A stretch of 64,000 nt of DNA, taken from NCBI GenBank assembly GCA_010093815.1, contig ML996573.1. One strand, written 5' to 3'. Made by a program: the position numbers and the translations under genes. The DNA is from Pseudovirgaria hyperparasitica. Its lineage: Eukaryota. Under the pieces are notes generated by a model. The model ran no database searches, was not told the DNA's origin, and saw nothing but the letters and a program-made list of their open reading frames with translations. This document shows positions 2,353 to 34,888 of this stretch, one piece after another; the stretch's first letter is position 1; the number at the start of each line of letters is the position of its first letter.

Positions 2353-4628
2353 ATGAGTGTTCCATCCACGCAGGCATCCAATGCCATCATCTACACCACC
2401 TATGCACTCTTTCTGTAAGTTGCGACGGAGGTGGTCCGCAACACTGGACACAAGACTGACTGTGCTCTGTCAGGGTTCTGGGTCTTTACATCGCATGGCG
2501 GTTGAGGAATCAGTCCAAGGGAGAATGGCTCTCTAGCAATCGGACACAGAAGGGTTAGACTATTCGGCGTGACTTGAGCGACATGCCATGCATTCTGTCA
2601 TCGTGCATACAGCTAACATCTCTATATAGCGATACCGCTCGCTCTCAACTTCATCGCGTCGGGTGAGTCAAGACTCGCAAGCATCAATGCGCGGCAGTGG
2701 CACCGTCACAACATCATTTGCGACATATCTTGAGAGAGAGAGAGTGTGTGTGTGTGTGAGCATACACGAGCCCGAGCTCCCACGACACGCAACATGATGG
2801 CATCACGAGAACTTGCCCATGACCAGGTTGGTACTTAAGCTTCTCTGCAGTAGGTCAGGTTGAGGTTCTTGTAGTCTGAAAACGACAACCAAGCACTTTG
2901 ACCTGGCTGGACTGCACGGCAACACTACGGGCGCTGAGCCGGCATCAGATCTTTCATTCCAGATCTGATTGCTTGGCGACGCTGAGATGTACCGTATGAA
3001 CTCGATCAAGATAATGCTTGCGTGAGGAATGTGCTGCCGCTGTCCCCTCCTTCTTTTCTCCTCTGTCTCACGATCCGTGGCTGACCTAGGACTTTCTGAC
3101 ATTTAGCTATGGGATCTTCCATCCTCTTTACGTACCCTCAAATCGCCACTATTGCCGGTGTTCAGGGGCTTGTTGTCTACGCACTCTCGGCGTCGTTGCC
3201 ACTACTCGTCTTTGCATGGCTTGGGCCGATCATCAGAGAGCAGTGCCCTGAGGGTTTCGTGCTCACGGAATGGACCATCCAGCGATATGGACTTGTCACT
3301 GGCTTGTATCTGAGTCTCTGCACGTACGTGGTATCATATGAGAATGGACAAGGAATGACACTAACAAGCCAAAGACTGCTCACATTGTTCCTCTACATGG
3401 TCGCCGAGCTCTCCGCTCTTCAGCAAGTTATCAACGCTCTGACTGGCCTGAATGGCCTACCCGTCGTCATCGTCGAATGCTTCGTCACGACCGTCTACAC
3501 ATGTCCGTCCCCTATCTTCCTCCTCCGTCCCGAATCCTAACTAACATCTCCTCCACAGCTCTTGCCGGCTTCAAAGTTTCTTTCATCACCGACAACATCC
3601 AAGCAGCAATGGTGCTCGGCCTGCTCATCATCTCCGTCGCTGCCGTCGGCTCCAAAACCACCATCGACCGGTCACTAATCCCGGAATCTGGCCTCCTAAA
3701 CTCCTCCCTCCTCGGCTGGCAACTCATCTACATCCTCCCCGTCGCCATCCTCACAAACAACTTCTTCCTCTCCGGCTTCTGGCTGCGCACCTTCGCATCG
3801 CGCTCCAACCGCGACCTCTACATCGGCGTCTCCCTCGCAACCGGCACCATCGCCGTAATCTTTACCTTCGTCGGCGCCACCGGCCTCCTCGCCGCCTGGT
3901 CCGGCGTCTGGCCCGGCGCCGACCCCACCACCGACGGCTCCCTCTCCTTCTTCCTCCTCCTCGCCCAACTCCCCACCTGGCTCGTCGGCATCATCCTCGT
4001 CCTCACCGTCGCCCTCAGCACCTCCGCCTTCGACTCCCTCCAATCCGCAATCGTCTCCTCCGCCTCAAACGACCTCTTCCGCAACCGCCTCAACCTCTGG
4101 CTCATCCGCGCCTCCGTCGTCGCCCTCATCTTCCCCGTCGTCATCGTCGCCCTCAAATCCCCAAACATCCTCACCATCTACCTCATCTCCGACCTCCTCT
4201 CCGCCGCCGTCATCCCCGTCCTCGTCATCGGCCTCTGGCCCAAAGCCCACGCCTGGCGCGGCTGCGACGTCGTCGTCGGCGGCCTCGGCGGCATCTTCTC
4301 CGTCTTCCTCTTCGGCCTCGTCTTCTACCAAGGCGACGCCCGCGCCGCGGGCAATCTCATCTTGCTCAAGAACGGCCTGTATGCGGATGACTGGAGCGCG
4401 TTTGGCGCGTTTGTGGCTGCGCCTGTAGGGGGCTTGTTGTGGGGTGCTGCGTCGTTTGGCGTGCGTGTTGCGGTGCTGTGGGTGTTGGCTAGGGTGCGTG
4501 GCACGCCGTTTACGGCGCTGGATAGGCCTGTGCGCGGGGATGAAGGGATGGTGGTGGAGGACGAGGGTAGGTTTAGTGGGGAGCAGAGTGTCGAGAGGAG
4601 GGATGTGAAGAATGGGCAGTTTTTCTGA
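2353..4628 (+). CDS. Sodium:solute symporter (SSS)-family transporter, putative thiamine/thiamine-precursor transporter (N. crassa NCU01977-like)
   Basis: Six exons assembled in frame: 2353-2414, 2474-2553, 2630-2662, 3107-3323, 3375-3502, 3559-4628. MSVPSTQASNAIIYTTYALFL...AIPLALNFIASAMGSSILFTYPQIA...SFITDNIQ...; many TM helices. The TPP aptamer in intron 3 supports a thiamine-related role. Confidence 0.88.
2917..3039 (+). ncRNA. TPP (thiamine pyrophosphate) riboswitch aptamer in intron 3 (2663-3106)
   Basis: P1 CGGCAACAC 2917-2925 / GTGCTGCCG 3031-3039; P2 ACGG 2927-2930 / CCGT 2992-2995; P3 extension GCCGGCATCAGATCT..AGATCTGATTGCTTGGC; conserved CTGAGA 2982-2987; P4/P5 GAACTCGATCAAGATAATGCTTGCGTGAGGA. 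Confidence 0.95.
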
Positions 4629-34815: not shown

Positions 34816-34888
34816 GCCCGGTTAGCTCAATCGGTAGAGCGTGAGACTCTTAATCTCAAGGTCGGGGGTTCGAGCCCCCCATTGGGCT
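34816..34888 (+). tRNA. tRNA-Lys (anticodon CTT), intronless
   Basis: GCCCGGT/ATTGGGC acceptor stem, D arm GCTCAATCGGTAGAGC, anticodon arm TGAGA-CTCTTAA-TCTCA, T arm GGGGG-TTCGAGC-CCCCC; Pol III T-run at 34893-34897. Confidence 0.97.

Follow-up and report, generated by a model that had tools for sequence, protein, structure and literature searches.

Can two short complementary segments about 340 nt apart in one intron act as the switch of a splicing riboswitch? The question is raised by contig ML996573.1 of the fungus Pseudovirgaria hyperparasitica (Dothideomycetes, Acrospermales; assembly GCA_010093815.1), of which a stretch of 64,000 nt was analysed (the window; all positions are counted from its first letter). 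In the third intron of a gene for a DUR3/DUR31-like transporter, one segment (alpha) lies just downstream of S1 (the distal donor), and the other (alpha') falls in the 3' strand of the P1 stem of a thiamine pyrophosphate (TPP) aptamer. We conclude, with a probability of about 80%, that they are the alpha and alpha' elements of a fungal TPP riboswitch of the NCU01977 type ('Type II'), in which long-distance alpha-alpha' pairing was described for Neurospora crassa (Li and Breaker 2013, NAR 41:3022; PMC3597705). The mechanism is already published and what is new here is its occurrence in P. hyperparasitica; we found no literature pairing Pseudovirgaria with a riboswitch.

Read from the + strand of the window, the two segments are GCGGCAGT (2691-2698) and GCTGCCGC (3033-3040). 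Set antiparallel, they form the pairs G-C, C-G, G-C, G-C, C-G, A-U, G-C and U-G, which are the seven Watson-Crick pairs and one U-G wobble claimed by the original prediction, and a ninth pair (G2699-U3032) extends the helix to 9 bp. The claimed spacing was also recovered, with alpha beginning 28 nt 3' of the donor GT (2663-2664) and lying ~335-349 nt from alpha'. As an isolated duplex the helix has a predicted energy of -14.6 kcal/mol with 8 bp and -15.4 kcal/mol with 9 bp.

The downstream segment had been said to be the P1 3' strand, and P1 itself to contain an A-C mismatch. Both statements agree with the covariance-model alignment and with direct reading, in which P1 is formed by 2917-2925 with 3031-3039 and is interrupted by the mismatch A2922-C3034, at a predicted energy of -10.2 to -12.5 kcal/mol. 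The aptamer match in the Rfam scan spans the full model (positions 1-105) yet falls below the gathering score of 54.3. Of 13 orthologous loci, 11 likewise stay below it (38-49 bits against RF00059), and such sub-threshold scores fit the long P3 insert of this riboswitch subclass. Every aptamer column that is invariant among the 36 orthologous introns described below is kept in the window, and the aptamer was the single element found by the Rfam scan of the first 8 kb. The covariance-model match, for which P1-P5 and the conserved cores (CUGAGA, ACC..., GCG..GGA) are the criteria, places the element in RF00059, and TPP binding, shown for the N. crassa orthologue (PMC3597705), is predicted here by analogy.

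In NCU01977, a GC-rich alpha element (consensus RGCGGYRRY) less than 60 nt past S1 pairs with the 3' shoulder of P1 ~530 nt away (PMC3597705). Deletion or mutation of alpha or alpha' abolishes most S1 use and the compensatory mutants M3 and M6 restore it, while thiamine moves splicing to the proximal donors S2-S4, the products of which carry stop codons (PMC3597705). Long-distance pairing is therefore indeed the published switch of this gene, as the original prediction had stated. The same study reported alpha in 16 of 18 further riboswitch-bearing species. Nearly all species had 11 or more contiguous alpha-alpha' pairs, which is given as a tendency and does not define the type, and alpha' was commonly less than 60 nt from the 3' splice site (PMC3597705).

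The P. hyperparasitica locus shares with NCU01977 the host gene family, the intron position after NFIAS, an alpha past the first donor, the P1 3' shoulder as its partner and proximal donors giving premature stops, including the AG/GTTCGT site that is N. crassa S3 (the slash marks the splice boundary). The N. crassa gene has the same exon end (...AACTTCATCGCTTCCG/GTGAGT) and an alpha of the GCGGTAG type (supplement, PMC3597705). The alpha core is common to both (GCGGCAG in the window, GCGGUAG in N. crassa). The two loci differ in intron length (444 nt against 684 nt, the latter derived from product sizes in PMC3597705) and in alpha-alpha' separation (~340 nt against ~530 nt). The window helix has 9-10 bp and no alpha-flank pairing, whereas the N. 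crassa alpha is 17 nt long and forms at least 11 contiguous pairs. Further differences are that alpha in the window lies at the shortest donor distance of 34 introns (28 nt) and that two registers are possible there. At 2690-2698, cGCGGCAGU fits eight of the nine positions of RGCGGYRRY, and alpha lies within the usual 60 nt of the donor.

The NCU01977 mechanism was generalised as 'Type II' by Mukherjee et al. 2018 (Sci Rep 8:5563; PMC5882874). According to the portion of that paper accessible to us, the host genes of this class belong to the urea-transporter family, and their internal intron carries, between S1 and the donor that follows, an alpha of consensus RGCGGYRRY; the window shares these features. 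We found an internal-intron aptamer in an NCU01977/DUR31 orthologue, an alpha' that is the P1 3' shoulder and a proximal donor leading to a premature stop; contiguous pairs number nine in the homologous register and ten in a slipped one, fewer than the 11 usual for the class. The intron, at 444 nt, is also shorter than the 650-900 nt given for Type II in the accessible portion of PMC5882874. All 36 orthologous introns compared below carry alpha at S1-to-alpha' spans of ~290-660 nt, which suggests that the class extends to shorter introns than are described there. The same portion defines Type III by a 200-400 nt intron with just two donors, a stop between them and an aptamer that masks the proximal donor. 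The window intron has 444 nt, two donors and a stop; no conserved masking was found, and the alpha element argues for Type II. In Type I (NMT1/THI4-type) fungal riboswitches and in plant THIC, an intronic TPP aptamer, a choice between two donors and a non-productive OFF isoform are shared with the window; there P4-P5 masks the proximal donor, whereas here a distal element pairs with the P1 3' strand. In bacterial TPP riboswitch platforms the P1 3' strand is likewise the switching strand of two mutually exclusive helices. These act as anti-terminator or anti-sequestor on transcription or translation, whereas in the window the competitor lies ~340 nt upstream and the choice concerns splice sites.

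The strongest evidence comes from orthologous introns. Metagenome contigs were scanned with an alignment of 18 family members, which gave 80 loci (L numbers). In 57 of these the aptamer 3' half is present and GTGCTGCCG follows it, and the upstream exon end NF[IV]AS was found in 51 of the 57 and in the window. Collapsing identical sequences left 37 distinct sets, and after dropping L001 (no donor, 47 nt missing) 36 remained, including the window. A GT follows NF[IV]AS+G at the S1 position in all 36. The original prediction had staked itself on the conservation of alpha in related species, and alpha was present in every one of these distinct introns, at S1-to-alpha' spans of ~290-660 nt, to which the set extends the alpha-alpha' design. 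The core GCGG[CU]A lies 28-82 nt past the donor in 34 of the 36, the window distance being the shortest, and the other two (L018 and L042) have an alpha element with one core mismatch. Four loci (L009, L015, L017 and L074) have the GCGGTAG-type alpha. The motif GUGCUGCCG also occurs in 36/36, but it was required by the selection filter and is hence no independent measure of conservation.

The remaining 23 loci are cut off upstream or are more distant homologues. Nine of them were examined: TPP aptamers that differ in sequence were found in five (L004, L013, L014, L025 and L033), and four gave no match. In three of these distant homologues (L014:3417-4001, L025:3179-4001 and L033:3643-4001; ~47-57% identity) the TPP aptamer is in the same intron, near its 5' end, and there is no GCGGCAG alpha. 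L014 has a different 9-bp complement to the junction and the inner P1 3' strand ~35 nt past the donor; either chance or an independent variant of the same design could account for it.

Pair counting depended on the alignment. A whole-intron MAFFT alignment (A2) shifted alpha by 3 nt between two sequence families and was excluded from it; alignment A3 was anchored 12 nt 5' of the alpha core, and in it L018 is still off by one GCA repeat. Alpha and alpha' are GCN-periodic (GCAGCGGCAGC / GCUGCCGCU; A3 columns 8-24 and 706-722), and a partner slid by 3 still pairs in 55-60% of cells. This period causes alignment programs to misregister alpha, as in A2, and makes slipped helices possible.

In A3, the 17-pair alpha-alpha' helix pairs in 77.8% of 612 cells; shifting the 3' partner by 1-3 columns lowers this to 24-60%. 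Each of the nine core pairs is formed in 32-36 of the 36 sequences. All changes in the core are single and wobble-compatible (C to U at one position in four sequences, C/U at another in 12, A/G in four). The flank pairs have changes on both sides in 28 cells, spread over seven pairs, a cell count attained in 2 of 500 shuffles. Shuffling gives a covariation score of 0.117 ± 0.009, and none of the 500 shuffles attains the observed 0.159. In the anchored count 151 of 272 flank cells pair, against 127.4 ± 5.4 with permuted partners (0/2000). The covariation signal is modest and comes from the flanks. The check suggested by the original prediction, an alignment of both segments for conservation and covariation, thus gave conservation, a modest covariation of the flanks and no covariation of the core. 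The orthologue set indicates where constraint lies in the helix, with a nearly invariant 9-bp core and covarying flanks. In all 36 introns alpha-alpha' is predicted to be more stable than P1 (medians -24.9 vs -14.1 kcal/mol), the P1 energies of L003 and L017 being unreliable since the motif search mislocated their P1 5' strand. The predicted structures, which were not tallied, have a P1 with an internal loop in most orthologues.

Several observations weigh against assigning the segments to this riboswitch type. The first consensus position is C2690 and not a purine, and alpha' lies 66 nt from the acceptor AG, slightly past the usual distance of less than 60 nt. The helix is short, with nine contiguous pairs (ten if slipped) and no flank pairing, and its energy is the fourth weakest among the 36. 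The core, as said, lacks covariation. Owing to the GCN period of the sequence, a +3 slide of the partner scores equally in covariation (0.164) and keeps 60% pairing. Pairs with double changes are no more numerous than in shuffles (190/500), and none of the shuffle and permutation figures is a probability, as the orthologues are mutually related. On the window alone, the match just modestly exceeds chance. Dinucleotide shuffles of the first 100 intron bases did as well in 110 of 2000 cases by helix length and in 120 of 2000 by energy (~5-6%), and 1.4% of 25-nt windows sampled across the 64 kb (n=9140) bind the alpha' region equally well. The 8-mers able to pair with GCUGCCGC (pattern GYGGYRGY) number 45 on both strands of the 64 kb, against 26 ± 5 expected, and 20 of the 45 are on the + strand (counted from the hit table). 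Alpha is nevertheless the top partner of the alpha' region throughout the pre-mRNA at 2353-2889, and it is the orthologues that supply the strong evidence that the match is not due to chance.

The explanation closest to the preferred one keeps the mechanism and changes the helix. Since alpha reads GGCA-GU-GGCA, a slipped register is possible in which 2693-2702 (GGCAGUGGCA) pairs with 3035-3044 (UGCCGCUGUC) in 10 bp including two G-U pairs (register 2), and which would likewise occupy the five outer pairs of P1 (3035-3039). That this is the helix formed in P. hyperparasitica is a serious prospect, if somewhat short of an even one. Its isolated duplex is predicted at -16.3 kcal/mol against -15.4 kcal/mol for the homologous register (2691-2699 with 3032-3040; register 1). 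In the ligand-free fold of 2655-3115 (minimum free energy -162.3 kcal/mol, z -2.2), register 2 has pair probabilities of 0.69-0.996, register 1 has 0.003 and P1 has 0; imposing register 1 costs 3.3 kcal/mol and imposing P1 costs 7.6 kcal/mol. Register 2 would also substitute for the flank pairing that is absent here, the alpha 5' flank and alpha' 3' flank of the window offering C-U, G-G and U-U. However, the homologous register in all orthologues is register 1, register 2 is unable to form there as judged by eye, and the gaps of 0.9 to 3.3 kcal/mol lie within the error of the nearest-neighbour model, for which reason we treat the choice of register as open. The helix of the original prediction thus stands as the homologous one, while its exact pairing is challenged by a register slipped by 2 to 4 nt and predicted to be at least as stable. 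Either register would exclude P1, because both occupy 3035-3039 and the outer five pairs give P1 most of its stability. The P. hyperparasitica copy is a minimal version of the alpha-alpha' element, and its helix, the shortest of the set, offers a natural case for asking how little pairing suffices for the switch. A core of 9-10 bp that slides between two registers may set a different TPP threshold.

Two public runs, X1 and X2, both from one sample of a single study and of a library kind not on record, supplied contigs that bear on the splicing of this intron. Four constitutive introns, all GT..AG and two on each side of the riboswitch intron, are removed in the X1/X2 contigs, with joints at 2414>2474, 2552/3>2629/30, ~3323>3377 and 3502>3559, and the model agrees within 1-2 nt at 3323. 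The contigs are read as RNA-derived because these introns are absent, which also confirms the gene model around the riboswitch intron. One contig, with the two upstream introns gone, continues unspliced across 2663 to 2826; a second joins 2826 to 3107 (GT..AG) and a third is unspliced over 2797-3134. The 2826>3107 isoform retains alpha and corresponds to the OFF product predicted for TPP-replete cells, the growth conditions of the sample not being on record. The productive joint 2662>3107 was not seen in the X1/X2 contigs, which drop rare variants and so are uninformative on donor use. A (GA)n(GT)n microsatellite (2732-2758) lies in the intron between alpha and the alternative donor, and mapped reads were reported to be cut at 2723-2768.

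The alternative donor is conserved as well. Its motif is present in 36/36 introns, as AG/GTTCGT in 34, as GTAAGT in L074 and as GTTGGT in the window, and it is placed 73-204 nt 5' of the P2 start in the orthologues. N. crassa S3 and the AGGTTCGT site are one and the same, as the S3 mutagenesis primer (Table S1, PMC3597705) shows. Use of this donor appears in a second species: taking two upstream introns and the 270 nt from donor to acceptor out of L053 yields the environmental contig L019 (96% identity; L019:190-360 compared with L053:785-1225), so that the RNA-like L019 is the same OFF isoform. The set thereby reveals an almost invariant weak donor that N. crassa mutagenesis had judged dispensable alone, as single mutations at S2, S3 or S4 left regulation unaltered (PMC3597705). 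In the accessible portion of PMC5882874, neither GUUCGU nor GTTCGT occurs. The alternative donor is kept in all 36 introns, which come from distantly related Pezizomycotina, and is used in RNA of two species. We tentatively consider, with the odds leaning against it, that the OFF state rests on this one dedicated, deliberately weak donor AG/GUUCGU instead of a redundant set of several cryptic ones, in which case the switch would be a competition between two donors with alpha between them.

A separate observation concerns the set that was dropped. Compared with L054 (2812-2892), the RNA-like L001 (193-226) lacks 47 nt from the S1 GT to an AG directly before alpha, with its other introns removed and the remainder of the riboswitch intron kept. 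Either a strain deletion or the splicing of a micro-intron that uses up S1 may explain this gap. In the latter case, the 47-nt micro-intron, known from a single environmental contig, might serve as a decoy, a third outcome at the expense of S1.

The conservation of the proximal donor in 36/36 introns, and its being the one seen used, could also be explained by masking of the NMT1 kind (Type I/III), in which the unliganded aptamer (P2 end, J2-4, P4) would mask the 2827 donor, TPP would unmask it and alpha-alpha' would be minor or vestigial. The intron length of 444 nt is nearer to the Type III range (200-400) than to the Type II range (650-900) given in the accessible portion of PMC5882874, and by eye 2826-2834 can pair with 2994-3002 at eight of nine positions. 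In N. crassa a residual TPP response without alpha was reported and P4-P5 masking of a proximal site was suggested, for S4 (PMC3597705), and the alpha-alpha' helix is short here. On the other hand, the donor is almost invariant while its partner in the aptamer varies (GAAC, UAC, AUAC...) and is often mismatched, the RNAduplex partners differ between sequences, and the single mutants of N. crassa S2, S3 and S4 were regulated normally whereas alpha mutants were not (PMC3597705). No conserved pairing of the 2827 donor with the aptamer was found across the orthologues, the partners being heterogeneous. We regard masking as an unlikely replacement for alpha-alpha' pairing; it may add to the regulation.

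Further down the scale, alpha could be a single-stranded site for a splicing factor (an intronic enhancer of the first donor) with an incidental complementarity to P1. A core conserved without compensatory double changes and the tight distance to the donor (28-82 nt) would both suit such a site. We hold it to be highly improbable, since the mutants M3 and M6, with off-consensus alpha, worked once pairing was restored (PMC3597705), the flanks of alpha and alpha' covary, and alpha resembles the P1 5' strand, as expected of two strands that compete for one partner. Least probable of all is a chance complementarity without function in P. hyperparasitica, for which the shuffles and the common GC-rich 8-mers counted above might speak but against which stand the core itself, which keeps its sequence and position in 34 of the 36 orthologous introns and has one mismatch in the other two, and the rank of alpha as the best alpha' partner in the whole upstream pre-mRNA.

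Under the NCU01977-type reading, which we prefer, the switch would work as follows (coordinates in Table 1). At low TPP, alpha would pair with the 3' strand of P1, a weak and interrupted stem, and a ~340-nt loop that holds the alternative donor and the aptamer would be closed. The loop would bring the 2663 donor near the branch site (~40 nt past alpha') and the acceptor (~66 nt past alpha'), and the whole intron would be removed to give the full-length transporter. With TPP bound, P1 would be held shut and alpha' would be unavailable, and splicing would move to the weak proximal donor 2827, or the intron would be retained. Both of these outcomes would reach the in-frame TGA, and no transporter would be made. 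This loop-out model, put forward by the original prediction, equals the NCU01977 mechanism at the orthologous locus and is supported in that sense; that the helix promotes use of the 2663 donor in P. hyperparasitica, and that TPP reverses it, is expected by analogy with N. crassa.

Table 1. Features of the riboswitch intron and its host gene (positions in the window; the slash marks a splice boundary)
Feature	Position	Strand	Remarks
Exons 1-3	2353-2662 (2353-2414, 2474-2553, 2630-2662)	+	First 58 residues; spliced translation matches homologue N-termini
Distal donor S1, GTGAGT	2663-2668	+	In-frame join to 3107 restores conserved ...NFIAS/A(M/L)GS...
Alpha	2691-2702	+	Register 1, 2691-2699 GCGGCAGUG (8-bp helix and one G-U); register 2, 2693-2702 GGCAGUGGCA
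In-frame TGA	2731-2733	+	Met when S1 is unused; 2826>3107 product ends after 81 residues
Proximal alternative donor, CAG/GTTGGT	2827-2832	+	Homologous to AG/GTTCGT and N. crassa S3; joint 2826>3107 in X1 and X2
TPP aptamer RF00059	2917-3046	+	cmscan 47.0 bits, E 5.7e-7; P1 5' strand 2917-2925, P3 long, P4/P5 ~3001-3026
Alpha'	3032-3044	+	P1 3' strand (3031-3039) and 5 nt beyond; register 1, 3032-3040; register 2, 3035-3044
Acceptor TTTAG (3105-3106) and likely branch site GCTGACC (A3084)	3080-3106	+	Acceptor used by 2826>3107 joint
Exons 4-6	3107-4628 (3107-3323, 3377-3502, 3559-4628)	+	DUR3/DUR31-like transporter

As a mechanistic rediscovery, the locus indicates that a validated eukaryotic riboswitch expression platform can be recovered from sequence alone. 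It goes slightly beyond the literature we read in three respects, namely alpha in 36/36 introns, the near-invariant weak donor and the short helix with two registers.

The gene model starts at ATG 2353 and has six exons, and its third intron is the riboswitch intron (2663-3106, 444 nt, G/GTGAGT ... TTTAG/). A3084, which we take to be the branch-site A, was chosen from the CTRAC consensus. By eye, and uncounted, the GCTGAC motif is present in most orthologue intron ends, with CTAAC in its place in several. A 470-residue P. hyperparasitica protein matches the last exon at 100% identity, and 60-70% identity was found to many Pezizomycotina proteins labelled 'urea transporter', of which some carry Pfam PF00474. 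The two largest reading frames gave no family in Pfam scans, and the family name rests on the homologue search. The predicted N-terminus, MSVPSTQASNAIIY...LALNFIAS/AMGSSILFTYP, aligns end to end with the N-termini of full-length homologues. The intron position after ...LNFIAS+G is that of the N. crassa gene sequence (supplement, PMC3597705). From this position and the 60-70% family identity we infer that the gene is orthologous to NCU01977/DUR31.

The gene product probably transports thiamine. Donovan et al. 2018 (PLoS Genet; PMC5997356), in the portion of the paper accessible to us, identified Candida DUR31, the NCU01977 orthologue, as a thiamine transporter, which supports thiamine transport by the family. 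According to the same portion, a riboswitch in a native intron of that gene controls splicing in response to thiamine, as is proposed for the window; the Candida species are budding yeasts.

The analysis has a value for annotation. The public 470-aa model begins at ATG 3110, just past the riboswitch intron, and is without exons 1-3, so that the first 58 residues of the protein are missing. This truncation is the same kind of misannotation as that reported for NCU01977, where it initially led work on the gene astray. The missing residues include a hydrophobic stretch that resembles a first membrane helix.

Upstream of the transporter gene, a neighbour is encoded on the - strand (1135-2040), presumably a PX-domain sorting nexin similar to Snx3. 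Two homologues are annotated as fusions of a PX domain (PF00787) and a transporter, which are probably merged gene models. Elsewhere, a tRNA gene (34816-34888, + strand) is the sole Rfam match at the gathering score in the whole window.

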